From: a virus
Lineage: Duplodnaviria > Caudoviricetes
Direction: 5' to 3' (one strand)
DNA length: 55,413 nt
IMG/VR virus record: IMGVR_UViG_3300034027_000007
Span: 1-55,413 of that record
The position numbers and the translations under genes are program-made. Within the stretch, counting starts at the first letter, position 1. Each line of letters begins with the position of its first letter. Shown piece after piece: positions 1 through 55,413 of this stretch. Below the pieces are notes generated by a model. The model had not been told where the DNA came from. It saw nothing but the letters and a program-made list of their open reading frames with translations, and made no database searches.

Positions 1-37
1 CACAAAAAAACACCCCCCCATATCGCAAGGAGGGCGC
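1..37 (+). repeat. Left terminal inverted repeat (candidate hairpin telomere half-site)
   Basis: CACAAAAAAACACCCCCCCATATCGCAAGGAGGGCGC matches the reverse complement of 55377-55413 except at positions 1 and 31. Confidence 0.9.
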
Positions 38-3653: not shown

Positions 3654-6600
3654 TTAGTAACCCTCTGGTAAAACCAACCCTCGATTATGCGTAGCAGCGC
3701 ACAAACCTCGATTATATTTCTCAAGCAATGGTGCATAAAAATTGATCCATTGGTTTGCCGTGTTGTTGTTGCACTTAGCGATCTTTGTGACGAGATTTTG
3801 CCCAATATACCACCGCTCTTTACCCGATTTTTTGGCATTAGCCTGCATAAAAGGCAGCATAGCCTCGCTGATTTTACGGAAGTTTGCCGGGGGCTTAGTC
3901 AAGCAACTATCAGGATCTGACAGCGGTCTTAAATCAACCTCACTCGATTTTTTGCTGACAATTTTTTGTACTTCTTGCTTAACCAATTCTGCGGGCGGTG
4001 CATTGTCTGGGGTGCGGTGATACAGTGGGATCTCGCGACTAGAAAGAGTAATTATTCTAGTCAGCCCTTTTAACATCTCGTGTTTGGGGGTTTTGTCCCA
4101 AACGTAAATATTTGTTGATGTTTTGTCTGTAGTCCATTCACCCGCATCATTTTTCCGGTAACAGAAGCGCGGCAAGTTCAGCATCATTGTGGGCGGGTTT
4201 TCTTGCAAGAACTTTAACCGATCTTGGCAAGCTTCAAACCAATCCAACCGCAGCACCATTACCAAACCTTTTAGGGCATGATCGAAAGCGTTTTTAATTA
4301 TAGGTGCGCTTAGTTTGCCATAAGGCGGGTTGCTAAAAATCCAGTCAGCTTTAGGCATTTTGTCCCAATTTTCGGCGACTGTAGCATCTAAGTGATTTTG
4401 CGCGGGTTTTTTAGGATCAATGTCGTTAGTCCAGACTTTAAACCCGGCCGCCTCCATTATGGAAGCGATCGCACGATTGCCGGAGCAAGGCTCGCCAATT
4501 GTGCCACTAAAAGGCACGTTAGCGAGTGCCAACAGCGTCATCCAGGCCGGAGTCTCATAAAAATCATACTTGTGCCTGCCGTTCTCATCTAACTCGATCT
4601 CGATAGCTTCTGGCGCTTCCTCTGTGGCTACTTCCTCAACAAGGGCGGCGGCGGGTGCTTCCTCAGCATCCGGCTCGACTTCCTCAAGGTCGATCTCGAT
4701 TGTCTCAACCTCGGCAGAGGCGGCGGGTGTTGCCTCTATCTCAACCTCAACAGGGGCGGCGGGTGTTGCCTCTATCTCAACCTCGGCAGGGGCGGCGGGT
4801 GTTGCCTCTATCTCAACCTCAACAGGGGCGGCGGCGGGTGTTACCTCAATCGGCTCGGTCACACCCTTGACGGTAGCGAGCAGATGTTCTGGCACTTCCC
4901 AGCCCCAAAGCTTCTGATATCCTCGGACTTTGACGGGTTCGATCGGTGTGACGTTTTCCAATAGCCAAGCATAGCGGCCAGCCTCCCAGATGCCGCAGCG
5001 CCGCTCTAAATCGGTTTGCTTGGCTATGTATTCCTCGGTCATCAGTACGCAGTCTACTAAATTGGCAACTGCGATTACATAACCGCGTTCTAAATCGCTG
5101 TGATGTCTGTCTACCAGCACGAGCAGATCGGGATTGATAGCCGTCTTTTTAACCGTTGACGCGATCGCAATCGGGCCCCGGTATTCACCGCCGCCAAACT
5201 TAGCCGGCCAGCCGCGAGTCTCAATTTTTTTGTTACCGTTGCGGACTAATTCGGCCCAGGGCTGATCGAGGCTCAAAGCTGGGATTTTAAGACTGACTTG
5301 TTGGACTGTTGCAGGAGCGGGTGCAATAACAGCGGGTGCAGCATTTACCACAACAGCGGGTGCAACAACGGCGGGTGCAGCATTTACCACAACAGCGGGT
5401 GCAACAACGGCGGGTGCAGCATTTACCACAACAGCAGGTGCAATAATTGCTTTGTCCTCTAAATCATCAATTTTCGCCCCTGGTTTTCTGACTACATAAT
5501 CGGCATAGTTTAACGTAGTCCTCAACGAGCTTAAATCGCCGTCAAAATGTCCTAAGATGCGCGATTTATATAACAGTTCGTTTGTGCCTTTTGGACAGTG
5601 TAAATCGGTCACGATAGCCGCCCAAGCGCCGCGCAAACTTTTACAGCTTGGGCTTTCTTCCCCTTGCCTAACAGGCAACCAAGAGAAATGTTTTGCCACC
5701 CCGATCCGGTTAACCTGTATCCGAATAGCATCTGAAAGTTTCTTGAGATCCGGATCGTCTGCGTCTATTTGTTGCGCTATTTTTTCCACTTCTGCGACCT
5801 TATCTCGAACTATCTTGCTATCTCTAATTAGATTAAGCCGTCTCAAGAAAAAATCAGAAGTTACACCCAGCAAGATAGTAGAGGTTGCCTGTATTTCTTT
5901 GTCGCGTTTTTTAACCCGCCCTTTAATTGTGAGCATTTTTGGCTCGCCTTCAATTGGGGTAAACTCTGCGGTGTAAATGATTTCAATTGGTCGGCATCCA
6001 GTCGCTGCGACAGCCCCTGCTATCATGCGGTAAACATCATCAGAAACTAAAGCAAACTTAATAGACTCTGTGAACTGTTCCGCGTGAAGGTCTAGCGCTT
6101 GGTTATCCAGTTTTGCAATTACCTTATCATCCGCGATTTTACGATCCTTGCTCCAATCGTAATCGAGGACGCCACAGTATTTAAAATGCAAGTGACGCAA
6201 TATTGTACTGCCGTCCGATTTCTGCCACATAACCGCATTTACACCCTCTACCAGCTTAGGCTTTAGCCTGTTAATTGCTGTGTTGTAGGCTGACAAACGT
6301 TGCATTTTTGTCTTGTCTGAGATCCTTTTAGGATCGAACCTGTCCATCGATAGAAGTTTATCGCACAATGCCTTAATGTCTTCCGGCGACTTAAGACTAA
6401 CCATCAATCGAGCGTACTCTCTCGCAGTCTTAAAGGTGTATTTATCATCTAGTTTGACTGTTTCCTCAGTTCGCTGCGGTAACAGCGCTTTAACGCGCTC
6501 TTGGCTCTGCATTTGGCGGACGATCGCGTATTGCTCAGGGGTGAAAATTTCTTTAATTTCAGCCCAAAAACCATCGCCAAAAGTTGTTTGATTGATTAAA

Positions 6601-7727
6601 GCCTGAATAAAGACTTTTTTAGACTTGTCTGAGCGCTGATCTTGCAGAACTTCCGCGAGCCGATAATCGCCTGATTTAGCTCGCCAGTACACCCGATCGC
6701 CGTTTTTGTACATGGGTGTTTTGATAGAGGTGTTAGGCGTCTCAATGGCAGTGCTAGCAGCCTCAGAAGCTTCGATCGGTTGCACCGCGTCCACATCGAG
6801 CGCAGATATCATATTAGGTTTGCTGGGGCTGTAGGCAAAAATCAACGTTTCGCCCGGTTTTTGGTCTTTATCGCACACCATAACCCGAACCGTACCGGGG
6901 CGGGGCGTCCAGTTAATCTTGTCACCAGCCTTGTAAAGTTTGATTGCTTCTGCGGGTGTTGCCACTACTTCAGCGGGTGCAGCGGCCGGCGCGGTTTCTG
7001 CGGGTGTTGCCACTACCTCAGCGGGTGCAGCGGTCGGCGCGGTTTCTGCGGGTGTTGCCACTACCTCAGCGGGTGCAGCGGCCGGCGCGGTTTCTGCGGG
7101 TGCTGCCACTACCTCAGCGGGTGCAGCGGCCGGCGCGGTTTCTGCGGGTGCAGCGACCAGCGGGGCTTGTTCGGGGGCGGTGACTGTTTCGGGTGCAGCG
7201 GCCGGTGTGGCTTCTGCGGGTGTAGCCGCCACGGCTTCAAAAGGAGCGCCGTACTTGTTGGTCGGATTGCCAAAGTGTTCCTGATACCAGCTATAGAGGG
7301 TTAACTCGCCTAAAGGGGCCCAAAAAGGTTTTTTCTTTTTCTCTGCAACCAGCAATTTTCTTGATGTTTCCGAATACTGATCTCGCTCGCAGTAGACAAT
7401 CAGAACATCGCCACCGCCGGCCGGAGTATAAACCAATTTGTCATTCTCCCGATACATCGGGGCTTTATAAACCTCTTTACCTTCTGCGAGATCGGGCTGT
7501 TTCGGCAATAGCTCTCTGTACTGGCTAGGGGTCATCAAGTCGCCAATATTTGCCCAAACCTTGCGGGTTCCGGTGCTGTCGGCGAGATTAACCCAAACTT
7601 TTTTAGACTTGCTGCTGGCTTGATCTTGGTCGCACTCAACCAAAATATAATTGCCGTCGCACTGATAGTATAAGTTGTCTCCCTTTTGGTGTAGCCGTTT
7701 GGTTCCTGTTTTGGTTGTGACTAACAT
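3654..7727 (-). CDS. Multidomain protelomerase (telomere resolvase) fused to SH3/KOW-like repeats, an ASCH domain and an amino-type DNA methyltransferase
   Basis: ATGCRPIEI, GRVKKR, SLRGAWA, ILGH, TTLNY (protelomerase pentad, ~5490-6450); ALSLDQPWA..GNKKIETRGW..YRGPIAIAS (ASCH, ~4890-5290); DFYETP, EPCSG, NDID, FSNPPY (MTase, ~4080-4570). Confidence 0.88.
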   Translation of the reverse strand: MLVTTKTGTKRLHQKGDNLYYQCDGNYILVECDQDQASSKSKKVWVNLADSTGTRKVWANIGDLMTPSQYRELLPKQPDLAEGKEVYKAPMYRENDKLVYTPAGGGDVLIVYCERDQYSETSRKLLVAEKKKKPFWAPLGELTLYSWYQEHFGNPTNKYGAPFEAVAATPAEATPAAAPETVTAPEQAPLVAAPAETAPAAAPAEVVAAPAETAPAAAPAEVVATPAETAPTAAPAEVVATPAETAPAAAPAEVVATPAEAIKLYKAGDKINWTPRPGTVRVMVCDKDQKPGETLIFAYSPSKPNMISALDVDAVQPIEASEAASTAIETPNTSIKTPMYKNGDRVYWRAKSGDYRLAEVLQDQRSDKSKKVFIQALINQTTFGDGFWAEIKEIFTPEQYAIVRQMQSQERVKALLPQRTEETVKLDDKYTFKTAREYARLMVSLKSPEDIKALCDKLLSMDRFDPKRISDKTKMQRLSAYNTAINRLKPKLVEGVNAVMWQKSDGSTILRHLHFKYCGVLDYDWSKDRKIADDKVIAKLDNQALDLHAEQFTESIKFALVSDDVYRMIAGAVAATGCRPIEIIYTAEFTPIEGEPKMLTIKGRVKKRDKEIQATSTILLGVTSDFFLRRLNLIRDSKIVRDKVAEVEKIAQQIDADDPDLKKLSDAIRIQVNRIGVAKHFSWLPVRQGEESPSCKSLRGAWAAIVTDLHCPKGTNELLYKSRILGHFDGDLSSLRTTLNYADYVVRKPGAKIDDLEDKAIIAPAVVVNAAPAVVAPAVVVNAAPAVVAPAVVVNAAPAVIAPAPATVQQVSLKIPALSLDQPWAELVRNGNKKIETRGWPAKFGGGEYRGPIAIASTVKKTAINPDLLVLVDRHHSDLERGYVIAVANLVDCVLMTEEYIAKQTDLERRCGIWEAGRYAWLLENVTPIEPVKVRGYQKLWGWEVPEHLLATVKGVTEPIEVTPAAAPVEVEIEATPAAPAEVEIEATPAAPVEVEIEATPAASAEVETIEIDLEEVEPDAEEAPAAALVEEVATEEAPEAIEIELDENGRHKYDFYETPAWMTLLALANVPFSGTIGEPCSGNRAIASIMEAAGFKVWTNDIDPKKPAQNHLDATVAENWDKMPKADWIFSNPPYGKLSAPIIKNAFDHALKGLVMVLRLDWFEACQDRLKFLQENPPTMMLNLPRFCYRKNDAGEWTTDKTSTNIYVWDKTPKHEMLKGLTRIITLSSREIPLYHRTPDNAPPAELVKQEVQKIVSKKSSEVDLRPLSDPDSCLTKPPANFRKISEAMLPFMQANAKKSGKERWYIGQNLVTKIAKCNNNTANQWINFYAPLLEKYNRGLCAATHNRGLVLPEGY
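4700..4850. repeat. 36-bp coding tandem repeat (EVEIEATPAAPx), linker between ASCH and MTase
   Basis: About 3.5 near-identical units visible in DNA and protein. Confidence 0.85.
5320..5445. repeat. 39-bp coding tandem repeat (APAVVVNAAPAVV) x3, linker between protelomerase and ASCH
   Basis: Visible in DNA and protein. Confidence 0.85.
6948..7155. repeat. 48-bp coding tandem repeat (PAETAPAAAPAEVVAT) x4
   Basis: Visible in DNA and protein. Confidence 0.9.
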
Positions 7728-7814: not shown

Positions 7815-8339
7815 TTAGTGGTAGCCGCGATCGGCTTCCGTCTCAGGGTGGCTAGCTGCCTTTAAACGCTCCCACAACGGCAACAGCCTTTTATTTTTTG
7901 GTTGATATAAATGCTGTACAAATAAGGGATACTCCCTCGCATACATCTCGTATAGCTTGGGGTTGTTTGCCTTACTGGCTTCAGTGTTGGCTATCCTGTC
8001 GGCTAATTTTACAATTAGTCCAATCTCGCTAGACATTACCCTCGATAGCACTGTTTTGATTTGGGTGATTCTATCTTGGCTTTCGGGGCTGCTAATTACC
8101 CACACAGCATAAGCGATCTCAATACCAAAATTTGCCTCCAATTCTTCATAAGTTGTTTGGGTATCCTCTAAAGTATCGTGCAACCATGCCGCCGCTTGCG
8201 TTAACGGCTCGTTGAATCCTAAAGTCTGGAGTATCTCGGCAACCCGCTCTAAATGCACAGAGTAATTATATCTGCCGTATTTTTGACCTTGATGCTTTTG
8301 TAGTGCAAATTGTCTCGCACGGGCAACAATTTCATCCAT
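7815..8339 (-). CDS. HD-domain protein, RelA/SpoT hydrolase-like (small alarmone hydrolase/Mesh1-like)
   Basis: FALQKHQGQKY, YSVHLERV, AAWLHDTLEDT, VKLADRIAN; ATG at 8339 preferred over 8381. Confidence 0.85.
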   Translation of the reverse strand: MDEIVARARQFALQKHQGQKYGRYNYSVHLERVAEILQTLGFNEPLTQAAAWLHDTLEDTQTTYEELEANFGIEIAYAVWVISSPESQDRITQIKTVLSRVMSSEIGLIVKLADRIANTEASKANNPKLYEMYAREYPLFVQHLYQPKNKRLLPLWERLKAASHPETEADRGYH

Positions 8340-8390
8340 AAAAAAAACGCGGTTAACCACCACCGCGCAAGGACTAAACAACGCTAGAAA

Positions 8391-13845: not shown

Positions 13846-16296
13846 CTACTTGCCGGAGGTTGCCGGAGTCTCGCCGGCCTTTGGTAAACGGAATGTTTTC
13901 CTACACTGGCGGTTGCCGCACTCATAGCGCGGCGTCCCGTCTTTGTAAGGCTTTAGGGGGTGTATTGTCGTGTACAAGCAATTCGGACAAGCCGCGAATT
14001 CATCCAAACCGCGATCGGCGTTTTCGCTTTCATTCTGGCGGTGCGGTGAGGTAACGCGGGCCCCTTCGGGAAACCGCAGCCCGTCCAGAGAAAAATCGCT
14101 GTAGGCAGGCTGCTGCACAAAGAAAGGCTCGAACGATGGCGCAACAACCAGGGCGATTCTATAAGCGTTTGGCGAGACTTTCTTAGAGTCGCCTATTTTT
14201 GGGCGAGCTGTAAGCCCTTCCTGCTCGTTTAAGAGGTCGCAGAGGCTGTTTAGTTGGTTTAGCTTATCCAGTAACTCAGCGCGGTTTGCAGCCGCTTTAT
14301 TGCTGTTTATATACGCTTTAGCTTGCTCTGAGGTCAGCACCATTGTGCAGTTGAGAAAGTCCTCTTTCATTAACCGGGTCGCGTTGCCCGTGTTTTTCTC
14401 GCCCTCTTCCGTCTTTTTCGTTCTTGCACCGCCGCTGAGGCCTGACACGTTCAACCCTTGCCCTGCCGATACAAACCCCATGTTTGTATGGTCAGACAAC
14501 TGATACATATCTTTGAAGAAGCGGCCGATCTCTTCGTAGTCCCGAGCGGTGGCATTATCTTCATCTAGGGCCATAACAAGATAATCTCTCTTGCTGGCTT
14601 CCTCTAAATTGTTCCTACGCCACTTAAACTCGCGGTGAAAGGCTTCTAACGCTTGCACGATGGTTTGTTCGGCGTTCATTCCCGGCTGTACAATGCCGGG
14701 GATTTTAAACCAGTCCTTAACCGATCCGGGGATAGGGTTAACGAGCCAAAGCACCCCTCTGTTTAGCTTGGCTAGCTCTACCGCGATCCGCTCTAGCAGC
14801 GGTGACTTACCGCCCGTGCTGCCTGCACAAACCCTCACTCGGTTGGTGAACTTAGTCCGCACCACTTCCCCAAACTGATCTGCCGGAAAACACCCCAATT
14901 CGATAAATTTATCGCGGTGTATGTCCGGCTCGTGTCTGGTTTGCGGCTCAAAGTCTAACCCTTTCTGTACTTTCGTTTTAGGCTTCTTGACCCGACTTAA
15001 ATCGGTTGTCAATAAGCCCCCAATAGTTGATAAATCGCTGTTGTCTCGTGTCCGGTTCATGTCCGCGTCATGTCCGGGACGTGTCTGGTTTACGGAAAAA
15101 ATCTCGACACTCACTAAAAAATCCTGCGGGTGCAACTTAAATTTTAATTCTCTGGTAGATAAACCCATTAACCCCCGCTGGTTTGTCACCTTGTTAAATT
15201 CTTCTGATGACAATTTAGTTTGGTCAGGGTTGCGATCGATCTTGAATTTAAGGCAATAGCCGCCTACTATTAAGTCAGTGCTGTGTGCATCAAATGTTAC
15301 ACCGTATTTATGGAAATGATCGATTATGGTATTGCCGATCTGATCTGGGTCAGTCAAACCCGAGAAACGGCGCGGCGCTTCATATTCGGCAATTTTCTGT
15401 TTTAAAATTGCGTTTTCTCCTGCTAGTTGGAGAAATTCAGAATCGCGGGCGCTCATCTCCTGTTTGTAAGCATTTTCTATTTGTGGCAGGGTGTTTTTTT
15501 CAATTGACTCCATTACATTTTGTTTGTCTCCTAAATCTTCCTGCAATATTGCAATAGCTTGTTTGAGCTTGGCAATCTCAGCGAGCTTGCTCTCAATAGC
15601 TTGACCTACTGCTTGCTGAGTGTAAGGGGCGATTTTGTTTCTAATTTCTAATTCCAACTTATAGTTAAAGTTAGTTTGTAGCTTGTCTAGCTCTAGGACT
15701 GTTTGTGCTAGCTCGCTGTCTAGATCGTCTTTTGCCGCTTCTAACTCTAGTACCTGTTCCTCTAAAGTCTTGTTGACTTCCTCCAATTCGGCAAGCTCGG
15801 CTAAGGTAGACTCTAAAGCCTGATTTTTTTCTGATAACTTTCTTTTTAGTGTCCCGATCAGTTCTTGCACTGGGGGCGAATCTAAAATTTTGGGGTTTTT
15901 TCCTGACTCCCAGTATCTAAGCCCTAATTCTAATTCCTCGCAGCGTCCCCTTAAATCGCTGACAGTCCGCTCTAATTCATCCCGATAGTGATTCCTCTCA
16001 GCGGTCATCTTCTCAAGCTCAGAGCGCAATTCTAGCTCTAAGATTGTTAATTTGCTCTTGGCATTCTCTAGCTCTAAAAGCAGTTCCTCTTGTTTCTCTT
16101 CCAACAGCCCTATAGCGTCCCGAGCGCCAAAGTTACAAGCGCTTGCACCCGCCAAAAATCCCGAAGTAAGGGCAAGACCGCTAGCAGCCAGCGGCGCTAA
16201 TCCCAAGCCGCCCAAAACAGCGACTACACCCAACCCGCCAAAGCTGACCGTGCCAAGCAGAGAAAACATTTTTGCTATCTCGTTTTTGGTACTCAT
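13846..16296 (-). CDS. Membrane-anchored coiled-coil FtsK/SpoIIIE/TraB-like ATPase with C-terminal zinc ribbon
   Basis: N-terminal hydrophobic segments, ~250-aa coiled coil, RVRVCAGSTGGKS (Walker A), LWLVNP, ALEAFHREFKWRR, YLVMALDED (Walker B), GFVSAGQ, CPNC..C-x4-C; start at 16296 or 16329. Confidence 0.7.
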   Translation of the reverse strand: MSTKNEIAKMFSLLGTVSFGGLGVVAVLGGLGLAPLAASGLALTSGFLAGASACNFGARDAIGLLEEKQEELLLELENAKSKLTILELELRSELEKMTAERNHYRDELERTVSDLRGRCEELELGLRYWESGKNPKILDSPPVQELIGTLKRKLSEKNQALESTLAELAELEEVNKTLEEQVLELEAAKDDLDSELAQTVLELDKLQTNFNYKLELEIRNKIAPYTQQAVGQAIESKLAEIAKLKQAIAILQEDLGDKQNVMESIEKNTLPQIENAYKQEMSARDSEFLQLAGENAILKQKIAEYEAPRRFSGLTDPDQIGNTIIDHFHKYGVTFDAHSTDLIVGGYCLKFKIDRNPDQTKLSSEEFNKVTNQRGLMGLSTRELKFKLHPQDFLVSVEIFSVNQTRPGHDADMNRTRDNSDLSTIGGLLTTDLSRVKKPKTKVQKGLDFEPQTRHEPDIHRDKFIELGCFPADQFGEVVRTKFTNRVRVCAGSTGGKSPLLERIAVELAKLNRGVLWLVNPIPGSVKDWFKIPGIVQPGMNAEQTIVQALEAFHREFKWRRNNLEEASKRDYLVMALDEDNATARDYEEIGRFFKDMYQLSDHTNMGFVSAGQGLNVSGLSGGARTKKTEEGEKNTGNATRLMKEDFLNCTMVLTSEQAKAYINSNKAAANRAELLDKLNQLNSLCDLLNEQEGLTARPKIGDSKKVSPNAYRIALVVAPSFEPFFVQQPAYSDFSLDGLRFPEGARVTSPHRQNESENADRGLDEFAACPNCLYTTIHPLKPYKDGTPRYECGNRQCRKTFRLPKAGETPATSGK
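15047..15090 (+). repeat. Four tandem 11-bp repeats (CRTGTCYGGGW family) inside the ATPase gene
   Basis: CGTGTCCGGTT CATGTCCGCGT CATGTCCGGGA CGTGTCTGGTT. Confidence 0.8.
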
Positions 16297-16315
16297 AAAA
16301 AATAACTCCTGTGTT

Positions 16316-16352
16316 TGTGTCTCGATCATGTCCGGGTCATGTCCGGGACATG
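16316..16352 (+). repeat. Tandem 11-bp repeats at the 5' end of the ATPase gene
   Basis: TGTGTCTCGAT CATGTCCGGGT CATGTCCGGGA CATG. Confidence 0.8.
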
Positions 16353-25056: not shown

Positions 25057-25479
25057 ATGAAGGCTAAATCAATTTTAAGGCAAGATCGAGTAAAAGTGCA
25101 GGGAACCCGCAATGATTACGTTCCGGGTAATGTTTACATATTTGGCAGCAGGCACGGGCGAGTCAAGGTAGGTTTAAGCCGCAACGTCGCACGGCGGCGG
25201 CGAGAATTATCTGCGGTTTATCAGGAAGATTTGACGCTGATAGCGAGCGTTTTTACCTTTAATATGAAACTGCTTGAGAACATTTTGCACGAACAGTATG
25301 CAGCCTACAGCGAGCCGCAACCGCAGCATTTAAACGGGCATACAGAATGGTTTACCGCTAAATCTTTCAGGATTTTTCAAATCAAATCGAGTCTTTACAA
25401 GCAGGCATTTGTTATTAACTTTAGTTACGTTTTGGCAATAGTTTGGCTGTTGGGCTTCATTATCAGGTTAACTTCCTGA
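25057..25479 (+). CDS. GIY-YIG/T5orf172-family protein with hydrophobic C-terminus
   Basis: GNVYIFG..VKVGLSRNVARRRREL..LENILHEQY..GHTEWF. Confidence 0.85.
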   Translation: MKAKSILRQDRVKVQGTRNDYVPGNVYIFGSRHGRVKVGLSRNVARRRRELSAVYQEDLTLIASVFTFNMKLLENILHEQYAAYSEPQPQHLNGHTEWFTAKSFRIFQIKSSLYKQAFVINFSYVLAIVWLLGFIIRLTS

Positions 25480-27112: not shown

Positions 27113-27595
27113 ATGGCAAAAATAACAGCCGTCTCCTTTGGGCAAATGCCGCCCGATTTTATAGCCGAAGGCATAGGCTCTGGTACAGATTGCTTACTTC
27201 CCGGTGGCGTTCCGATCGATGTTGCAACAGTGCCAACTGTATCCGGCCCCAACGGCATCGCAATTAAAACTTTAGCAGCCGGATCGATTGTCAACAGAAT
27301 TGCGTCAGTCCGACAAAATTATGGGCCTTTTAAAGTTTGGCCCCCTGCATCGGGTACACCAGAAGCGCTGATCGATTTTTATTTGGTTGCTTTTACAGTG
27401 ACGGATATTGAGGGCCTCAGCTTAACCCCTCAAACGTTGTTAAGTAGTGGCGATCCGGGTTGCAACGTACTTCGCCCCGGTACATTGATCTATGAGGATA
27501 GGCTACCCCCCTATTTTGCTTTGTTGGCTGAAACCGACAAGGAAAAAATTAGAGACAAATATCCTATGCTCTTAGCTCGGAGGGTTGTACTATGA
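27113..27595 (+). CDS. Putative head decoration protein
   Basis: LLPGGVPID...LRPGTLIYEDRLP; immediately upstream of and overlapping the major capsid gene. Confidence 0.65.
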   Translation: MAKITAVSFGQMPPDFIAEGIGSGTDCLLPGGVPIDVATVPTVSGPNGIAIKTLAAGSIVNRIASVRQNYGPFKVWPPASGTPEALIDFYLVAFTVTDIEGLSLTPQTLLSSGDPGCNVLRPGTLIYEDRLPPYFALLAETDKEKIRDKYPMLLARRVVL

Positions 27596-28788
27596 ATGTA
27601 ACAACGATCCGAGAGCTAGTTACCTGGATGGATACTTCCGGGCAATTTGAGGCGCTTTCTTCCTCGAATATGAGCCAATTTGGGACACCTCAAGAACCAA
27701 TGCTCGGAGCTACAATTTTGCCCGAAAGGCAAGATTTAGAAAACGCTTACAACTCAGTTTCACTGGCAATTAATAACGAGATCGGTAACAGTGGAGCCGA
27801 TTACAGTCCTGCTCAAAAAAACAAGGCACTAGGCGATTATAGCTTCCTAGTTAAACTAGGAAAATTGGACGCTGCAAGCGACTTGAACGGCCCCGAATTA
27901 GAGCGCATCATCCACTATTTAGAGCGGCGCTTGCCAACCCGAGATCCGCTCCTGTCAGCTTCTGAAATCTTGGCTCGATGGTTCGATCGCGGCGTTTTGC
28001 ACTCTCTGGCACAAGTCATGGAGCAGCAGCGCTGGCAGGCTATTGTTGACGGGCAAGTGAAGCGGCGCGGCTCAAATGGCTATGCTGAGAACGTTGACTA
28101 TCCATACGGAACATCGCACCAAATAACCACGGTTCCGAGCGGTACGCTCGCAGCCCCTGCGGGTTGGTACGATCAGAATATGGCCACGGCGTACAACCCC
28201 ATGCTCGACCTACTGGCTATCAAGCAGCGGTTTGCCGATCGCGGTTTCAAGTTGCGCCGGATAATCAGCAAGAGTGCAATCAGGACGGTATTTTTTAACA
28301 ACGGCAAAACCAGACAAAACGCTCTGCCGCTGAACATTTTGCCGCTAACTACCAGTCAAGTCCCCAGCGAGCGCGATATACAAGCGATGCTCGATCGGTA
28401 CGAGCTACCGCCGTGGGAAGTCTACAATTCGGGGTTTAAATACCGCGATCCGAACAATGCCGATCAGCTAAAATTCTCAGCTTATCTCGACCGTCAAGGG
28501 TTCGATCCTATTATTTTTCTGGCTACAACAACGCTAGAGCAACAAATCGAATTAGGGCGAGATCAGGGGATTATGTACCTGCCTAGCACCCTAGGTAATT
28601 TTGTCTTGGGTCGCAACTTGGGACAAATGCGGTTAGGTAAGGTTCCCAAATTGATTGTGCGCGATGAAAAATACCCATACTCAATATATGGGGAAATAGT
28701 CGCCACAGGCTTGCCAGTAATTGAAGCGGAAGTGCTAGCAATGGGCAATCCGATAGCTATCTTAAAAGTACCCAAACCCACGCCATAA
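27592..28788 (+). CDS. Major capsid protein (lambda gpE-like)
   Basis: 398 aa; GATILPER, EQQRWQAIVDG, VDYP, ATGLPVI motifs typical of this capsid family. Confidence 0.85.
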   Translation: MNVTTIRELVTWMDTSGQFEALSSSNMSQFGTPQEPMLGATILPERQDLENAYNSVSLAINNEIGNSGADYSPAQKNKALGDYSFLVKLGKLDAASDLNGPELERIIHYLERRLPTRDPLLSASEILARWFDRGVLHSLAQVMEQQRWQAIVDGQVKRRGSNGYAENVDYPYGTSHQITTVPSGTLAAPAGWYDQNMATAYNPMLDLLAIKQRFADRGFKLRRIISKSAIRTVFFNNGKTRQNALPLNILPLTTSQVPSERDIQAMLDRYELPPWEVYNSGFKYRDPNNADQLKFSAYLDRQGFDPIIFLATTTLEQQIELGRDQGIMYLPSTLGNFVLGRNLGQMRLGKVPKLIVRDEKYPYSIYGEIVATGLPVIEAEVLAMGNPIAILKVPKPTP

Positions 28789-44796: not shown

Positions 44797-46254
44797 TCAA
44801 ATAGGTATCAGGGAGCCGCCGCGACTGTCTGGCGGTCTATCATCAGACTGATTGCCCGTTTCAATCGGTGCATCGCTGAGTTTATTTGTGGGTTGCGGTG
44901 TTTCTGGCGATTTGTTCGCGGTTCCTGTGGAGTTGGCGGGTTGTGCCAGCACGGCGGCTTCACTTGCCTCTAACTTCAATTCCTCAAGCTCTCGCTCGAT
45001 ATCTGCTGTAAAACCCAATTGCTCAATAGCCGTGCGGCGAGATACCAAACCGCGATCGCGAGCCTCTAACACTAATTTTTTGTGTTCATCGCCCTGATAG
45101 ATGCGCGGTAAAATCTTTACAACTACTTTTTGTTTTACGCCTAAAAAATAGTTAGCAACAGTCAATAAATCGCTAATATAGTAACTAAATTTGCGCGAAT
45201 CGCTCCTAACTAAATTAGCAAAATCAAAGCGGCTTTGCTCTCTACTGATGCCGCTTAAAACTAAATTAGACCCTAGTATAAAAGTCTGGCTTGTTTGTTC
45301 GTATATAGACAAGCTAAAACCGCTAACAGTGTTTAAAAAGGTTTCTGGATCGCTTGGTTCTTCGATCTTTACTTCTGGTTTGGTGTAGTTTGTTATCTGC
45401 TGTTTTTCGTCTTTAAGCGGTAAGCCCTGGATGAACTGCACCACACCCGCCCCTGTTGGTAGTCCTTCCGGTCTAGGCGTAAATTTTGCCCTACCTCGGC
45501 TATCATAAGCCCATTCGCCGGGAGGTTGCGCGTTGAGGACAGATTTTTGCACCCACCCACCTTTTAACAGGTTATTTACTAACAGCGTAAGCGCTGAGTT
45601 GATTGCGTTCTGGTTTTCTTTCAGTGACTCGGTTACAAGTTGCGGCAAGTTGACCTCAACTATAGTGAAACCGCCGCCTAGATCGAGTTTTAACTGTTCC
45701 GTTACGCGCTCGCCGTCTACTGTTTCAATAACTGTTAAACCGTTCTGTAAATACTGTCTTTCGATTAACGATCTGCCGTCCTGATAATAAGCGTAATCAA
45801 ACCTATATAAAGTGTTGTCATTATTCCGATATGCTCGAACACTATGCTTGGGCGGACAGTGTACCTCTAAGGCTTCTTTTTTTGTTTCGGATGTATAAGT
45901 TTTCTGGAAATATAGCCGCAAGTAGGCCCGCCCCTCAACTTTCGCTTTGGTAGCCGCTTCCTCGAACGGGTGGCCGAACAGTCCCGAGTTTTCCCTCTCC
46001 CACTTCTGTAACAAGTCTTTCAAAAGCGGATCGACTTCGGATAAGTGGGAGGCTGAGAGCGCCGAGACGTGCCTGTTGACTACTTCCTTAATTTTGTTGC
46101 AGCTTTGAAAGTTCCGGGCGATGATCCGGGACGTGATGATATTGCTTTCTTGAGTCAAATCGAGAATGGTGCTTAGCCATTCTGTAACGAACACCTCGCC
46201 CGTGTACCAACCCCAAGCCGGGGCTTCCAGAAAATCAGGATAATTTCGATACAT
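44797..46254 (-). CDS. Portal protein (SPP1 gp6-like)
   Basis: 485 aa; NKIKEVVNRHV, GRAYLRLY, LSGISREQ, GLVSRRTAIEQLG..DIERELEEL. Confidence 0.8.
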   Translation of the reverse strand: MYRNYPDFLEAPAWGWYTGEVFVTEWLSTILDLTQESNIITSRIIARNFQSCNKIKEVVNRHVSALSASHLSEVDPLLKDLLQKWERENSGLFGHPFEEAATKAKVEGRAYLRLYFQKTYTSETKKEALEVHCPPKHSVRAYRNNDNTLYRFDYAYYQDGRSLIERQYLQNGLTVIETVDGERVTEQLKLDLGGGFTIVEVNLPQLVTESLKENQNAINSALTLLVNNLLKGGWVQKSVLNAQPPGEWAYDSRGRAKFTPRPEGLPTGAGVVQFIQGLPLKDEKQQITNYTKPEVKIEEPSDPETFLNTVSGFSLSIYEQTSQTFILGSNLVLSGISREQSRFDFANLVRSDSRKFSYYISDLLTVANYFLGVKQKVVVKILPRIYQGDEHKKLVLEARDRGLVSRRTAIEQLGFTADIERELEELKLEASEAAVLAQPANSTGTANKSPETPQPTNKLSDAPIETGNQSDDRPPDSRGGSLIPI

Positions 46255-46529: not shown

Positions 46530-49500
46530 ATGAGCAAATATAAATTAGCCAGCAAAAAAAATCTCTGCCCTGTGTGCGGGGCCCATAAAGATTGTAAAGA
46601 ATTACTTGGCGGCACTCAAATACTCTGGCTGTGCAAAAAACAGGGATCGTTAAACAAAGGTGAGAAAATACCCGGCACAGATCACAATATTTGGATTTGT
46701 TTAAAACCTGCTGAGGCCGCGATCTGGGCAACGATGGCGATCGCTGACGATCAGGAGATAACCCCAGAGGAACGAGCCAAGCGTAAAGCCGATTTGGACG
46801 CTCGCCAGCAAGAGGAAAAACGCAAGCGACAAGAAGCGCTCGCGATGGAGATGCCGGCCGGCGAGAGGGACGAACACTACAGAAAGATTTTTAGCCGCCT
46901 AGTCTTGACGAGCGGCGACTGTCAAAACTTGCTCGATCGGGGCTTTACTGAGGAACTATTGAGGCTGACAGGTTTTATATCTGTTGATAAGTCTCAAGTG
47001 ATTAGCGGCCTCTATCCTGACAATTTACCGGGATGCGTAGCGAGCGGCGGCAACAGTTGGCTGCAAGTTTCGGGGCCGGGTATCCTTTGCCCGTTTCCTG
47101 ATGAGCAAGGGCGGATCGTCGGTGCTCAGTTGCGGCTCAGGACTACTGGCGAGGATGAATCCCGTTATCGCTGGTTTGGTTGGAACAATGCAAGCAACTT
47201 GAACGGTGAGAAGCCGATCGCTTGTTGGGATTTTTCGCAGTCCGAGCAGCAGGATCGGATCTGGTTGGCTGAGGGTACGGGAATTAAACCCGCACTGGCT
47301 AGCTACCGATTGCGAGCACCTGTCGCGGGGGCGGCGGGGGGACTGTTTTCGAGCAGCCCCCAAAACACTCTGAGAACTCTAGAGCATCTGGCCGCTAAGT
47401 ACGGCACAAGGATGCTGGTAATGGCAGTTGACGCGGGGGACGTTGTTAATAAAGACGTGATCAAGCGGTTGCAGCGTCAGCGTAAATTCTTGCAAGATAA
47501 CGGGTATAACGTGACCTTTGCTTGGTGGGGTCAAGTTACAAAAGAGCATGATGATATTGACGAGCTAGCCGATCTAAGTGCAATCGCATACCTCGCCCCA
47601 AATCAATTCGATGCGATCGTTGCAGAAGCCAACGCACCGATAACCGATGAAGTGCGATCGCGATCGCAGTTAGTAGTGCAACCGCCGCGCCGCGATCGCA
47701 GGGAAGAAGCGCAACAGCAAGCGAAAGAAGTGAAAGAAGCGCGATCGGTGGTGCGGTTACAGCCTCCTGAGATTGAGCGTCCGAAAGGGTGGAAATCTTG
47801 GCAGAACTGCCGGAAGTTTACGCCGGACATTATACAAAGCAGTGAATTTGTAAAGTTTGACGCGCCAGAACCCGGCACAATTCTGGCTGTTAATGCTGGT
47901 TTGGGGACGGGTAAAACTAAAAATTTGGAGGATTTATTTGCACCCGGCGGTGCGTATGAAGGCAAGGGCGCGTTTGGTTTCTTTGCACGTAACAGCTTGA
48001 TCTATAATTTTATAGGCAGAATTCCATCATTCACGCATTTGAATGAGGAATTACTCATAATGCTGAGAGATCCGGGATCTCGTTTTGCATTGTGTACAAA
48101 CAGTTTAAAGAAAATTACAAACCCAGAATGGTTTGAAGGTAAGATTCTAATTATTGACGAATTCCCAGCAGTATCGCTGCACCTTGCTTGCAGTGCAACA
48201 CACCGGAAAGATCGCATACAATCTTTAGAAATATTTAAACAGGCATTTACGCTTTGCGAGTCGGTAATTATATTAGGCGGCGACCTTACCGACTGGCAGG
48301 TAGAATGGGCGGGCAAACAAGCGCCAAATAAGAAAATAGTCAAGCTTAAAAACAACGGCAAAAGACCGAGGGCAAAAGTCGAAATTTTGTTAGGAACTCC
48401 CACAAAATCGGGAAGCTTTGACAGTGCCAAATTATCGCCTTTTATTGCGCCTATTGTTAGTGCAAATCAGCCTATTACTATTTTCACTGACAGCCAAAAA
48501 CTAGGCGAGCAAATTGAATTACTATTAATTGACGCTGGTAAAAAAGGTTTAAGAATAGACTCTAAAACGGTTTATCCTAAAAGCGAGGCGAGACTCTGCC
48601 TTGATAATTGCAAGAAGTGGATTGAGGCAAATTTGCCCGATTATCTTCTCTGCTCGCCTACTTCCGAAAGCGGTGTTGATATGAATTTACCGGGCTATTT
48701 CTCTGATAGTTACGGCTTGTTTAGAGGAATTCTGGCAACCGATCAGCAGATGCAAATGATGGCGCGCAACCGCGATCCTAATTGCAACTGGCACATAAGT
48801 GTGCCTAAGCAGAGTTTTTTAAGGGGAAGCGACAAAGATTACAATTTAGACAATATCAACGCAGCAGCTAACAAATTGTTGGAGTTAGCTGAGATGGACA
48901 TCTCGCATTTACGCCTAAATAAGGACTGGTTAGGCGAGACTTTCTTACAGTACATTGAGGAAGCTCACAACGATGTCAATAACTTATTTGCTTTGAAATA
49001 CAGGGCAAAAGAAGCATTCGAGAAAGAGAATTTAAGAGAGTGCTTAATATTTGCTTTAGAGGAAGCCGGCCACGAGATAAACCAGACAGCTTATTTTGAA
49101 AATGCCAAAACGGAAGCGGAACTAAAAGCCGCTGGGGAAATGGTGAAAGACGCAACTGCCGCTCAAATCTTCCATGCGGAAGATATAACCGAGAAACAGG
49201 CAGAGGACTTAAATGCTAAGTGGGCATCGACTTGGGAAGATAGGGTGAAACTGATTAAGGCAGGCTATAAGAAGCTATTGCCGGGTATAGACGAGACAGA
49301 GTTTTGGAATAAAGAATTTATCAAGTTTCTGAAGTACGATCACCCTAAAGCGATAGCCGGGGCTGAGTTGCTGTACCTGTTCAAGAATCCCGATTTGGCA
49401 AATAAGAAGCAACACAATTTTTGGGCGAAAATAGCCACTGAGCGAGCGATTTTCTTGCCTGATATCACATCGTCTCACCTCAAGGTTAAAGCCCTGCAAT

Positions 49501-50150
49501 TCATCAATTTTGAGCGGTTTTTAGACCCTGATAAAACTTGGCACAAAAACAGCCCTGAGATTTTGGAATTGGTCAAGCTAGGGAACAGGCCGCGAGTGTA
49601 CAACGTGTTAGGGCTGTTTGTCCCCAAGTTTACAAAAGGGAAGCGCAAGGGCGAATATGATGGCATCACTTACCTGCGAAAATTGCTCGGCATGGTAGGG
49701 CTGCAATTGGGCCCGTGTCAGCAGAAGCAAGTTGAGGGCAAGCGCTTCAATGAGTACGCGCTCGATCGGGTTTGGTTGGAGAATCCTGTTAGGGTGGCGA
49801 TCGCTGACGCGGTGGCCCGGCGCTATGAAGAGTTTAGTCTCAATTGGGTGATGCCAGAAGTGCTGACAACACCCGTGCGTGACGTGTTAGAAGCCGTTGA
49901 GCCGCCAGATTTGACCAACGAGCCGGAAACTGATCCGGATGGCTTAAATTGGCGTGAGATCGAATTAGAAGTTAAAACACCTTTTGGCAAGTTGAGGGAG
50001 GGCGATCGGGTGATGCCGATCAGCCAACCGAGGCGCAAGGGCGAAAGCGAAAACTCTTGGCTGATATGGATCAAGTCTGCTGTTGGTGTGTTTTTAGTCG
50101 ATCTCGGGATGTTACAATTGTATTTTGAGATGCTCCCGCCCACAGTTTAG
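46530..50150 (+). CDS. Plasmid replication protein, CyRepA1-like primase-helicase
   Basis: N-terminal CPVCG..DC..C zinc finger, GAQLR, RYRW, LAEGTGIKP, DIDEL (TOPRIM-like), AGLGTGKT, IIDEF, CSPTSESGVDM, QMMARNR. Confidence 0.88.
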   Translation: MSKYKLASKKNLCPVCGAHKDCKELLGGTQILWLCKKQGSLNKGEKIPGTDHNIWICLKPAEAAIWATMAIADDQEITPEERAKRKADLDARQQEEKRKRQEALAMEMPAGERDEHYRKIFSRLVLTSGDCQNLLDRGFTEELLRLTGFISVDKSQVISGLYPDNLPGCVASGGNSWLQVSGPGILCPFPDEQGRIVGAQLRLRTTGEDESRYRWFGWNNASNLNGEKPIACWDFSQSEQQDRIWLAEGTGIKPALASYRLRAPVAGAAGGLFSSSPQNTLRTLEHLAAKYGTRMLVMAVDAGDVVNKDVIKRLQRQRKFLQDNGYNVTFAWWGQVTKEHDDIDELADLSAIAYLAPNQFDAIVAEANAPITDEVRSRSQLVVQPPRRDRREEAQQQAKEVKEARSVVRLQPPEIERPKGWKSWQNCRKFTPDIIQSSEFVKFDAPEPGTILAVNAGLGTGKTKNLEDLFAPGGAYEGKGAFGFFARNSLIYNFIGRIPSFTHLNEELLIMLRDPGSRFALCTNSLKKITNPEWFEGKILIIDEFPAVSLHLACSATHRKDRIQSLEIFKQAFTLCESVIILGGDLTDWQVEWAGKQAPNKKIVKLKNNGKRPRAKVEILLGTPTKSGSFDSAKLSPFIAPIVSANQPITIFTDSQKLGEQIELLLIDAGKKGLRIDSKTVYPKSEARLCLDNCKKWIEANLPDYLLCSPTSESGVDMNLPGYFSDSYGLFRGILATDQQMQMMARNRDPNCNWHISVPKQSFLRGSDKDYNLDNINAAANKLLELAEMDISHLRLNKDWLGETFLQYIEEAHNDVNNLFALKYRAKEAFEKENLRECLIFALEEAGHEINQTAYFENAKTEAELKAAGEMVKDATAAQIFHAEDITEKQAEDLNAKWASTWEDRVKLIKAGYKKLLPGIDETEFWNKEFIKFLKYDHPKAIAGAELLYLFKNPDLANKKQHNFWAKIATERAIFLPDITSSHLKVKALQFINFERFLDPDKTWHKNSPEILELVKLGNRPRVYNVLGLFVPKFTKGKRKGEYDGITYLRKLLGMVGLQLGPCQQKQVEGKRFNEYALDRVWLENPVRVAIADAVARRYEEFSLNWVMPEVLTTPVRDVLEAVEPPDLTNEPETDPDGLNWREIELEVKTPFGKLREGDRVMPISQPRRKGESENSWLIWIKSAVGVFLVDLGMLQLYFEMLPPTV

Positions 50151-50158
50151 GAGTCAGA

Positions 50159-50431
50159 ATGGAACGGCATAAAATGCGGTTGGTAAGGAACCGCAGAACG
50201 CTCAATAGCGAGCAAATAACGTATGAATCAGTTTTAGCAGATGCCTTAAAAGGTATCTCTGAGGGTGTGGTTGTATTGTGCGATATTATGCACAATGCAG
50301 AGTCAGATAAAGATAGAATAGCCGCAGTCAACGGGTTACTGAATATCGGAGTAAAACTCGCGGGGGTTGCTGTTGTTGAACAGTTGCCGCTGTTAAAAAA
50401 GTTAGAGGAAGATGTCAGGAAATCTGCATAA
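50159..50431 (+). CDS. Putative terminase small subunit
   Basis: SDKDRIAAVNGLL..LKKLEE helical pattern; AGGAG RBS; overlaps terL. Confidence 0.6.
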   Translation: MERHKMRLVRNRRTLNSEQITYESVLADALKGISEGVVVLCDIMHNAESDKDRIAAVNGLLNIGVKLAGVAVVEQLPLLKKLEEDVRKSA

Positions 50432-51860
50432 TGTCGCACATAGAATTACTGCCTTAAAAGGCAAGGTTGAGCAGAAAAAGAAAAAGTCAACGGCGCTAAT
50501 TGTGCCTAAAACTTTTGATGATTTTTGCTCGGGCATTACAATGCGAAGCGGCGGCAAAATGCGGCAGTTTCAAGCGTATAAATATCAAGTGCTGCTTGAC
50601 TGGCTAATAGAAAAATACAGCCCTGTTACTGTATTAAAAACGCGACAGTTAGGCACTACACAGATGATGATTGCGCGAGCGCTGCATAAAGGCTCGCAAA
50701 ATCCTGCATATCAAAGCAGTTTTTTTATGCGGAACGATGGGGACGCCACCGCCATCAAAACCCGCACATCCTGGCTAGCAAGGGAAGCAAAGCTAGAATT
50801 AGAAATAGATAACGACAAATTAATCAGACTGCTAAACGGTGCAGAATATCGGTTTTATAACAGCGGTAAGGAAGGCAATAGAAGCGCGGATTCTTTATGT
50901 TTTGCAGTGTTTGATGAGGCTGCATTCAATCCTAATATAGCTAGCATATACGCAGCTAGTACAGCATCTACAATACTCACGGGCGAGGATGCCAAAATTG
51001 TTATAGTATCAACGCCATCAGCGCGATCGGGTTGGTATTGGGACAATATCAGCGAAAATAACGGCGGTCGCGATATTGAGGAAATCTGCCGCGAAGTAGG
51101 AAATTTAAACCTTTACAGCAACGATCTACCGGGTTTTTACTGGTTTCCAGATGAAGCGGACGGCTGCAAAGTTTTTGTACATTGGCGCTGTCATCCAATT
51201 TATAGTCAGTGGGATGATTTTGTTGAGCGTATGGCTCGCAAATATAAGCTTGACATGATGGACGCCGAAAGAGAATATAATATGGTGTTCTGCGATCCGG
51301 CGATCGAAGTGTTTCCGGCTGAGTTTATTATTGAGGCTGAAAACTTAGAATTAACCCCTAGAAATAGGGGCTGTTATATTGGTTTGTATGTTTCAGAAAC
51401 ACATTCCCATGCTGTTAGTTATTGCGACGGTGCGGTTATTTCTAGTGCTAGCGAGAAAAACCCCTCAGCAAACACGGCGATCGGTTTGGTTCCGATGGTT
51501 GCAGAGAGTTATTTTATTAATACAATTGCTGTAAAACAAGCAGACGGCGGGGAAGCCATCGCCCGCAGATTGCGGCAACTCTATCCCGGTGCAACTGTTT
51601 TAGAGGTTGCAAAGTCCGATTATCCCAACACAATAGCAAATTTAAGCCTGCTGTTAGAGAATAGACTGATTGCTATACCCAAGTACACAGCATCACCTAG
51701 ATCCAGCCCTATAGCCAAGCATTTAAGAGATTTTAGGAGACAAGAGGGCAAGCTCGGCTCGCTCGACAAAAATAAAAGGGATGATGGAGCCTGGGCCCTT
51801 GCGTTTAGCGTTTGGGCAAGCGATTACAATTGTCAAGAATTACCTATTGGAACTCGATAA
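50412..51860 (+). CDS. terL: Terminase large subunit (ATPase intact, nuclease motif degenerate)
   Basis: YKYQ, VLKTRQLGTT, AVFDEAAF, IVIVSTP, REY; C-terminal YIGLYV...RDDGAWALA. Confidence 0.9.
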   Translation: MSGNLHNVAHRITALKGKVEQKKKKSTALIVPKTFDDFCSGITMRSGGKMRQFQAYKYQVLLDWLIEKYSPVTVLKTRQLGTTQMMIARALHKGSQNPAYQSSFFMRNDGDATAIKTRTSWLAREAKLELEIDNDKLIRLLNGAEYRFYNSGKEGNRSADSLCFAVFDEAAFNPNIASIYAASTASTILTGEDAKIVIVSTPSARSGWYWDNISENNGGRDIEEICREVGNLNLYSNDLPGFYWFPDEADGCKVFVHWRCHPIYSQWDDFVERMARKYKLDMMDAEREYNMVFCDPAIEVFPAEFIIEAENLELTPRNRGCYIGLYVSETHSHAVSYCDGAVISSASEKNPSANTAIGLVPMVAESYFINTIAVKQADGGEAIARRLRQLYPGATVLEVAKSDYPNTIANLSLLLENRLIAIPKYTASPRSSPIAKHLRDFRRQEGKLGSLDKNKRDDGAWALAFSVWASDYNCQELPIGTR

Positions 51861-55376: not shown

Positions 55377-55413
55377 GCGCCCCCCTTGCGATATGGGGGG
55401 GTGTTTTTTTGTA
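55377..55413 (-). repeat. Right terminal inverted repeat (candidate hairpin telomere half-site)
   Basis: GCGCCCCCCTTGCGATATGGGGGGGTGTTTTTTTGTA, reverse complement of 1-37 with 2 mismatches. Confidence 0.9.

Follow-up and report, generated by a model that had tools for sequence, protein, structure and literature searches.

A phage large terminase with intact ATPase motifs and a vestigial nuclease domain, encoded in a genome with a protelomerase

The large terminase of the window

The stretch of DNA analyzed here (the window) is the whole 55,413-nucleotide (nt) IMG/VR virus record IMGVR_UViG_3300034027_000007, which is classed as linear with a CheckV completeness of 77%. Toward its right end lies the gene for the large terminase (TerL), the subject of this study. 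An earlier note on this DNA had proposed that this TerL combines an intact ATPase with an inactivated nuclease and that, with a protelomerase already yielding unit-length genomes, virions may package covalently closed hairpin DNA. The TerL open reading frame (ORF) and the features within it that bear on this proposal are as follows.

50412..51860, plus strand: TerL ORF, 482 amino acids (aa), open; assigned by Pfam Terminase_6N, Foldseek and 50 homologs
50502..51311, plus strand: ATPase domain, residues 31 to 300, with KTRQLGTT (K76, R78), FDEAAF (D168, E169) and VSTPS (S200, T201)
51303..51830, plus strand: vestigial nuclease domain, residues 298 to 473, an RNase H-like terminase-nuclease fold without the catalytic acids
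51387..51389, plus strand: codon TAT of Tyr326, motif YIGLY, replacing the first catalytic Asp (gp17 D401)
51396..51404, plus strand: site of a three-residue deletion that takes out the acid of the G-x-D-Y motif, with His331 next to it (MAFFT, hhalign)
51534..51536, plus strand: codon AAA of Lys375, motif IAVK, replacing the catalytic Glu (gp17 E458)
51780..51785, plus strand: codons GAT GAT of Asp457-Asp458, the sole acidic pair kept (gp17 D541-D542)

The only Pfam family matched by TerL is PF03237 (Terminase_6N; E 5.4e-7; 29.9 bits, the cut-off being 22), and a Foldseek search with the TerL model returned T4 gp17 (3cpe) as its best match (E 3e-19). A PHROGs search gave no family for TerL, and querying PDB sequences with TerL alone produced chance matches only, so that a family profile was required. 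In a MAFFT alignment of the query and 38 family members, K76, R78, D168, E169, S200 and T201 are unchanged in 39 of 39 sequences, which bears out the reading of the ATPase motifs as intact. The family profile alignment matches these columns to the Walker A, Walker B and coupling regions of gp17, names that we take to hold for the TerL columns as well. The P-loop Lys opens the loop instead of standing within a G-K-T; the same arrangement is found in the terminases of cultured Nodularia phages, and as a family-wide trait it marks no defect of this TerL.

Loss of the catalytic acids of the nuclease domain

We located the catalytic columns by three alignments: the MAFFT alignment of the 39 members, a family profile against T4 gp17, and an hhalign comparison of the substituted clade with the intact clade (both defined below). 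In the profile alignment, with positions counted on chain 3ezk_A, gp17 D401, E458 and D542 correspond to Y326, K375 and D458 of TerL, and hhalign returned the same catalytic columns. D401, E458 and D542 are the catalytic triad of gp17 as given in the portion of PMC3074133 cited here; TerL, with Y326, K375 and D458 at those columns, lacks a gp17-type triad. Three of the four metal-binding acids are replaced (Y326, K375 and the deletion), and the three alignments agree that the late Asp pair alone is kept. Pfam Terminase_6C has no match in the window TerL, while relatives score 13.9 to 20 bits, under its gathering cut-off of 22.6.

On re-reading the sequence, the codons that the earlier note had singled out (TAT at 51387 to 51389 and CAT, encoding His331 in the motif HSHA, at 51402 to 51404) and the motif IAVK proved correct. 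Its description of HSHA as the altered form of an acidic motif holds only in part: the G-x-D-Y acid is indeed lost, but by the three-residue deletion and not by a change at His331 itself.

One substituted clade within a family of intact terminases

The 22 intact relatives, which are 24 to 37% identical to the query, read G-I-D-T-S, G-x-D-Y, h-h-h-E-x-x-G-G and H-D-D. Sixteen closer members (43 to 62% identical) and the query itself instead read G-L-Y-x-S, carry the three-residue deletion, and read h-h-h-K and R-D-D. Column by column, the first Asp is replaced by Y or F in 17/17 substituted sequences and is D in 22/22 intact ones, and the Glu is replaced by K or R in 17/17 and is E in 22/22. 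The first residue of the late Asp pair (D457) is D in 16/17 substituted sequences and in 22/22 intact ones; at the D458 column, 14 of the 17 substituted sequences have D and the other 3 have E.

A wider family set of 198 sequences, comprising the query and 197 database proteins, contains 135 that read D-E-D-D and 28 that read [Y/F][K/R/Q] followed by the late acids; the remaining ones are fragments or have C-terminal domains without alignment. No clear half-way state was seen among the 198, the rows reading AE-- and SRDG being possibly misaligned. The clade has at least 28 members, spanning 43 to 97% identity. Trees were built on the ATPase domain alone, with the columns of the trait itself excluded. 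In the 181-row tree the 24 substituted rows form one clade with a local support of 99, requiring one change, and the predicted loss of the nuclease is, by this reconstruction, a single event.

For three close pairs, the ratio of nonsynonymous to synonymous substitution rates (dN/dS) was 0.095, 0.063 and 0.068 in the dead domain, compared with 0.068, 0.030 and 0.029 in the ATPase domain. By these estimates the dead domain is clearly under purifying selection, with a constraint somewhat below that of the ATPase domain. In addition, the TerL gene is covered piecewise, at 99% identity or more, by contigs of four other public runs, in which the motif codons are identical; four variable places were noted in these contigs, none of them within the motifs. 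The substitutions, which are clade-wide, are neither gene decay nor a sequencing error, the earlier note having likewise argued against the latter. The data support a selected, clade-wide state in which the nuclease active site is gone and the ATPase is intact, and from the residues lost we infer that the nuclease domain is catalytically inactive.

Searches for further members gave little. Scans of genome and metagenome contigs with the clade alignment found one more member (L051), the other matches being of the intact type. The clade profile gave four matches in 401 sampled Cyanobacteriota genomes, at 256 to 369 bits and thus far under the scores of clade members; the one of these four that was checked (G046 C91, which is L050) has an intact triad, and the clade was not found in these 401 genomes. 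Nothing close to the clade turned up among 50,697 phage records, and no cultured phage of the clade is known. The nearest database protein, P0001, is 97% identical and partial, on a 1.5-kb contig labelled as a Streptococcus pyogenes metagenome-assembled genome; this label, unfitting for a cyanobacterial phage gene, is probably a binning error. In three viral contigs (L009, L010 and L040) a related TerL is found in two ORFs about 1.8 kb apart, one with the ATPase part and one with an intact-triad nuclease part, which suggests an inserted element or a split gene.

Fold and charge of the nuclease domain

In the AlphaFold model of TerL (predicted local distance difference test [pLDDT] score 88.6), Y326 closes strand 320 to 327, K375 closes strand 368 to 375, and D457/D458 open helix 458 to 471, locations that we take to be the usual RNase H-like positions. 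In VIA structural comparisons, the modelled ATPase domain matched the P74-26 TerL ATPase with Z 22.1 (root mean square deviation 2.7, 221 residues aligned), and residues 298 to 473 matched the Sf6 gp2 nuclease with Z 18.0 (root mean square deviation 2.4, 170 aligned), the G20c nuclease with Z 16.9 and RB49 gp17 with Z 13.9. Further nuclease-domain matches were E217, P74-26, herpesvirus pUL15 and P22 gp2. The predicted nuclease fold is entire, and its acids are gone.

The mean net charge of the C-terminal domain is +4.1 in the substituted clade versus −2.0 in the intact relatives, and K375, R386, K436, R439 and R443 are conserved basic residues specific to the clade. Among the 17 members, position 326 is Tyr in 16 and position 375 is Lys in 15. 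No nearby acid appears to have taken over: D378 is N in 6/17 and E381 is R, K or C in 3/17, and across 21 clade members no D or E of the C-terminal domain is invariant. The C-terminal tail (51840 to 51857) carries an L-P-x-G-S motif that is conserved in the substituted clade, with L477 and P478 in 17/17, and that most intact relatives lack.

The protelomerase and the layout of the clade genomes

The window also encodes a protelomerase and ends in a short inverted repeat.

3654..7727, minus strand: 1357-aa protelomerase with the ResT/TelK catalytic domain PF16684 (E 8e-17) at residues 549 to 744 and with fused ASCH-like and methyltransferase-like parts
1..37: left inverted terminal repeat; read in reverse complement, the right end agrees with it at 35/36 positions
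55377..55413: right inverted terminal repeat, past which public contigs run on

The protelomerase fusion comprises proline/alanine-rich repeat blocks, the catalytic domain (549 to 744), an ASCH-like domain (818 to 896) and a DNA-methyltransferase-like C terminus (phrog_799, 1049 to 1229); its orthologs in the clade have 949 and 1234 aa. It shares SGRR..IE, GQAKKR, R220 and ILGH with TelN of phage N15, a comparison that shows conserved R, K, R, H and Y positions, and the Tyr of an LNY motif is conserved among the three clade protelomerases; these shared positions and the Tyr are presumably the protelomerase catalytic positions. The catalytic part had no tblastn match among the 50,697 phage records, the whole protein had no telomere-resolvase match among PDB sequences, and a scan of viral contigs with a protelomerase alignment returned only two clade records that were already known. 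A ResT/TelK catalytic-domain model exceeds its cut-off in a Synechococcus elongatus control genome.

The runs that hold the window sequence are labelled as biocrust, soil and freshwater metagenomes, and their contigs are of low depth. Three other clade genomes were found in viral contigs: G002 (52,500 nt) and G003 (60,105 nt), both classed as having inverted terminal repeats, and G001, a 34-kb piece that represents a 38% fragment. The three near-complete clade genomes are 52 to 60 kb and myovirus-like. All four genomes are collinear, with the protelomerase 1.4 to 7.4 kb from one end and TerL 1.7 to 3.5 kb from the other. Three of the four records carry the protelomerase, the exception being the G001 fragment, which lacks that end of the map.

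The inverted terminal repeats measure 36 nt in the window (35 identical), 177 nt in G002 (162 identical) and 127 nt in G003 (all identical), and the right end of G001 lies inside a G002-like repeat. A protelomerase and terminal inverted repeats are present in 3/3 near-complete records. The window repeat occurs in two copies only within the window, and the terminal-repeat core was not found in other viral contigs. The ends of the three genomes share no 9- to 12-nt k-mer, their repeat sequences differ, and none of the ends opens with a palindrome. The 36-nt repeat of the window is shaped like an outward-facing intrinsic terminator, with a C-run, a loop, a G-run and a T-run. It could represent insertion-sequence ends or a repeated terminator that breaks the assembly; for the clade as a whole such an artifact is unlikely, given that the repeats differ between three diverged genomes whose ends fall at equivalent places on the map. 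A protein-primed genome, which would likewise have inverted terminal repeats, was considered and rejected, since no family B polymerase was found (by Pfam, among 56 window ORFs) and a protelomerase is present.

Other genes of the window

The remaining features called on below are the following.

46530..50150, plus strand: replication protein, 1206 aa, primase-helicase type, N15 RepA-like (phrog_4913, "replication," E 4.5e-20)
50159..50431, plus strand: small ORF, 90 aa, overlapping the start of TerL; candidate small terminase or DNA-recognition subunit
44797..46254, minus strand: portal protein (PF05133, E 6.7e-4, under the Pfam cut-off; phrog_64, E 8.7e-6), present in 4/4 genomes
27592..28788, plus strand: major capsid protein (phrog_29, E 6.6e-10; orthologs match Phage_cap_E)
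13846..16329, minus strand: conserved 827-aa protein consisting of an N-terminal coiled coil, an FtsK/HerA-type ATPase domain and, at the C terminus, a zinc ribbon (model pLDDT 83.3)
25057..25479, plus strand: T5orf172 (GIY-YIG-type) ORF
7815..8381, minus strand: HD phosphohydrolase ORF

The replication protein has a weak, collinear BLASTP match to N15 gene 37 (RepA; E 0.001). An ORF of 86 to 101 aa lies at the place of the small ORF in 4/4 clade genomes, with 36 to 41% identity; the window copy has no Pfam or PHROG family, and Atlas gave only a DUF5681 lead (0.89). The only match of the major capsid protein among phage records, to a Rhodococcus phage, is 25%. With an endolysin-like protein as well as sheath, tube, tape measure and baseplate proteins also encoded, the window has the look of a complete contractile-tailed phage, and the head, portal and tail gene set is conserved across the clade genomes. 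An IS605 TnpB and a RecT are found in G002, and an SNF2 helicase in G003.

The 827-aa protein found nothing in Pfam, PHROGs or PDB sequence searches; its model has VIA structural matches to TcpA (Z 13.8), the FtsK motor (Z 13.1), HerA (Z 11.3) and the STIV2 packaging NTPase (Z 9.9). Homologs occur on contigs of 51,690, 58,715 and 52,500 nt, the same sizes as the contigs with a clade TerL, and also in Microcoleus, Leptolyngbya and Phormidium isolates. The protein accompanies the substituted TerL, with segregation, help in telomere resolution, or transfer as candidate roles.

Search for a substitute nuclease

A six-frame Terminase_6C search of the four clade genomes recovered only the C-terminal domain of TerL itself, under threshold, and Pfam found no HNH domain in the 56 ORFs of the window or in 130 from G002 and G003. 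The T5orf172 and HD ORFs are the only nuclease-family ORFs of the window; BLASTP found no counterpart of either one in the three relatives, and both are probably mobile or accessory. One G003 ORF has a sub-threshold MUG113 match. A conserved 334-aa protein has a sub-threshold match (E 1e-3) to a PolB-related 3′-5′ exonuclease and no similarity to the N15 gene 41 exonuclease. PDB profile searches with the conserved 827-aa and 334-aa proteins gave coiled-coil noise or nothing.

Proposed packaging without a terminase cut and its alternatives

We propose that the members of this clade, a group of cyanobacterial phages, package ready-made, unit-length, hairpin-ended genomes without a terminase cut, a proposal that we hold to be about evenly poised between right and wrong. 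In this scheme the genome would be a ∼55-kb linear replicon with a protelomerase and a RepA-like protein, and the protelomerase would resolve replicated telomere junctions into unit-length monomers with closed hairpin ends. TerL would be a working packaging ATPase whose dead RNase H-like domain has been retained for a structural or DNA-binding role in the motor, comparable to phi29 gp16. This nuclease-less TerL would feed the monomers, one end leading, into the prohead, and the conserved small protein encoded upstream, together with a site near the right telomere, would probably act as a guide; the terminase would cut neither when packaging begins nor when it ends. As a noncutting terminase could not mature concatemers, a monomer is the likely substrate. 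Packaging sites usually lie beside terminase genes, and the position of TerL near one telomere in 4/4 genomes fits a packaging start at that end. The hairpin ends, and the entry of the hairpin form into the capsid, we infer. The first step has a precedent in N15-type replication, in which the protelomerase resolves telomere junctions to unit-length closed monomers (PMC10612081, in the part cited).

In a stronger form of the proposal, which we entertain tentatively and consider somewhat more likely to fail than to hold, the virions would contain covalently closed hairpin double-stranded DNA, the protelomerase would be the maturation enzyme, and the RuvC/RNase H-like domain of TerL, by now basic and devoid of its acids, would have been repurposed to recognize or hold the telomere end at initiation and termination. 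Under this form, the FtsK/HerA-type translocase would perhaps help the protelomerase as FtsK helps XerCD, and the clade would show, at an early stage, how phi29-like motors came to lose their nuclease.

Several observations weigh against packaging without a cut, among them those on the co-occurrence of protelomerase and TerL. The prediction that the two features go together among relatives has fared unevenly. The clade genomes do have a protelomerase, and none was found in 39 viral-contig records of more distant TerL relatives (0/6 among those at least 90% complete), whose TerLs read D-E-DD in 35 cases, were cut or partly aligned in 4, and read Y/K in none. However, the test is not specific, because intact-triad TerLs pair with a protelomerase as well. 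Small cyanobacterial plasmids with a TerL of the same family (13.8 to 26.8 kb, two of them recorded as linear) carry a protelomerase in 7/7 cases, and their TerLs read D-E-DD in 7/7; in Rivularia sp. PCC 7116 pRIV7116.01 (NC_019679.1) the protelomerase is one gene away from TerL. By annotation only, two of these plasmid records list no capsid or tail proteins, and the plasmids could be linear telomere plasmids or phage satellites. Three cyanobacterial contigs, from Pelatocladus, Fischerella PCC 9431 and Nostoc XA010, likewise combine a protelomerase with an intact-triad TerL, and phage N15 has both a protelomerase and a cutting terminase. In a 41-row ATPase tree a 23-row group with support 100 contains the substituted clade (11 rows, support 99). 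Of the other members of this group whose context is known, six have a protelomerase and one does not; the unlabelled Nostoc XA010 row was later found to have one. The simplest reading of this tree would be that the protelomerase link is older than the nuclease loss, which occurred once, on the branch to the full-size phages. The protelomerase is permissive for nuclease loss and not sufficient for it, and with a single loss event the co-occurrence carries no statistical weight.

The ends of the record weigh on the same side. One contig of the public run X1 overruns the right end of the window by 318 nt, and one of run X3 departs at 55412 into 201 nt that are not in the window, the first 30 letters of this overhang being found neither in the window nor in viral contigs. 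A 55,584-nt contig of another assembly, which carries the 827-aa protein of the window, is 171 nt longer than the window. Since contigs overrun it, the ends of the record are not physical tips; either the record stops within a longer terminal repeat, or the molecule goes on. Moreover, a long perfect palindrome breaks assemblers, so that an intact telRL in circular or concatemeric DNA and a hairpin-ended DNA would give the same repeat-flanked contig.

One alternative is that the TerL nuclease is dead but that concatemers are cut at cos or pac sites by another nuclease, either a phage enzyme of an unrecognized family or a host enzyme; virions would then have ordinary open ends, and the telomere-ended form would be an intracellular plasmid stage only, as in N15. 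We regard this as unlikely, though it is the alternative with the most to be said for it. About half of the ORFs have no family, which leaves room for an unrecognized nuclease; protelomerase and cutting terminase occur together in N15 and, by sequence, on the small plasmids; and public contigs overrun the record's end. On the other hand, no HNH domain and no second terminase-nuclease domain turned up in the clade genomes searched, the T5orf172 and HD ORFs lack counterparts in the relatives, and the 334-aa protein resembles, weakly and under the cut-off, a 3′-5′ exonuclease and not an endonuclease. In HK97-like phages terminase cutting depends on an HNH partner, which speaks for a second enzyme, but such partners act as helpers of an active TerL nuclease and not as its replacement. 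A lactococcal example appears in PMC12967558.

It is more improbable that the C-terminal domain still cuts, by way of a site rebuilt around D457/D458 and other residues or through a chemistry of Tyr326 and Lys375. The strong purifying selection on the domain, its complete fold, the retention of D457 in 16/17 and the near invariance of Tyr and Lys at the old metal site would all suit such an enzyme. Yet one canonical carboxylate position is left, the nearby acids vary as described above, and the change from Glu to Lys reverses the charge at the metal site; in gp17, single substitutions in the triad abolish cutting. Least probable in our view is that these elements, as linear plasmid-prophages, have ceased to package their own DNA, with defective or domesticated particles and a drifting TerL. 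The CheckV completeness of the records (72 to 79%) and the lack of a cultured phage of the clade are consistent with such decay, but the dN/dS of 0.03 to 0.10 in both TerL domains, the invariant ATPase motifs and the breadth of the clade are not, and in four diverged genomes the genes for capsid, portal, sheath, tube, tape measure and baseplate are open and collinear. Packaging of unit-length genomes by a noncutting TerL, the mechanism of the earlier note, is the best available reading, although unproven.

Comparison with known packaging systems

To our knowledge, the phi29 group has the only vestigial-nuclease packaging ATPase among tailed phages and herpesviruses. For phages, the part of PMC7672431 cited here states that this group alone lacks an active nuclease, and it describes how unit-length genomes made the phi29 nuclease dispensable while the vestigial fold was kept, binds DNA and serves motor transitions. 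Like phi29 gp16, the clade TerL has an ASCE ATPase followed by an RNase H-like domain without catalytic acids and would act on unit-length genomes. The two differ in that the phi29 domain is, in the same account, a four-stranded core without sequence similarity to terminases (PMC7672431), whereas the domain described here has a full-size fold and, by hhalign, plain sequence homology to intact terminases. Furthermore, phi29 is protein-primed and uses a packaging RNA (pRNA), whereas the window encodes a protelomerase and a RepA-like protein; pRNA was not searched for. In the best reading of these comparisons, TerL would work like phi29 gp16 yet stand outside that family.

With N15, PY54 and phiKO2 the clade shares a protelomerase, a large RepA-type protein and, putatively, a linear replicon with inverted-repeat telomeres. 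N15, however, has a lambda-type terminase, 12-base cohesive ends and terminase genes at cos, with telRL 24.8 kb away in mid-genome (N15 record; PMC10612081; PMC4669245), and it packages cos-cut DNA, as the earlier note had stated and as the N15 record and PMC10612081 confirm. In the clade, TerL lacks the catalytic acids and lies 1.7 to 3.5 kb from a putative telomere. Two further differences from the N15 group are that ParA and ParB were not found by Pfam in the 56 window ORFs and the 130 ORFs of two relatives and that the tail is contractile, as judged by the sheath and tube genes.

T4 gp17, Sf6 gp2 and G20c TerL have the same two-domain architecture, ATPase motifs and folds, and differ in that the clade TerL has two of the three triad residues replaced, one further acid deleted and a Terminase_6C score under threshold. 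The small cyanobacterial protelomerase plasmids, within the common 23-row group, hold the nearest TerL relatives of known context; they differ in their D-E-DD triads and in their size.

Implications for tailed-phage packaging

In phi29 the nuclease origin of the domain is visible by structure only, whereas this clade would represent a second, independent loss in which neither the fold nor the sequence homology has yet been eroded, and intact sister proteins are available for side-by-side biochemistry. Full-text literature searches, the results of which were surveyed in outline, found no protelomerase phage with a nuclease-less terminase and no hairpin-ended virion DNA of a tailed phage. The clade opens the questions of what role a terminase nuclease domain has in the motor besides cutting, how packaging starts and finishes on a unit-length substrate, and how a hairpin is threaded through the portal. 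If the virion DNA is indeed capped by hairpins, this would be a new type of genome end for the Caudoviricetes, and these would be the first tailed phages known to have it; the caps could shield the DNA against exonucleases that attack its ends.

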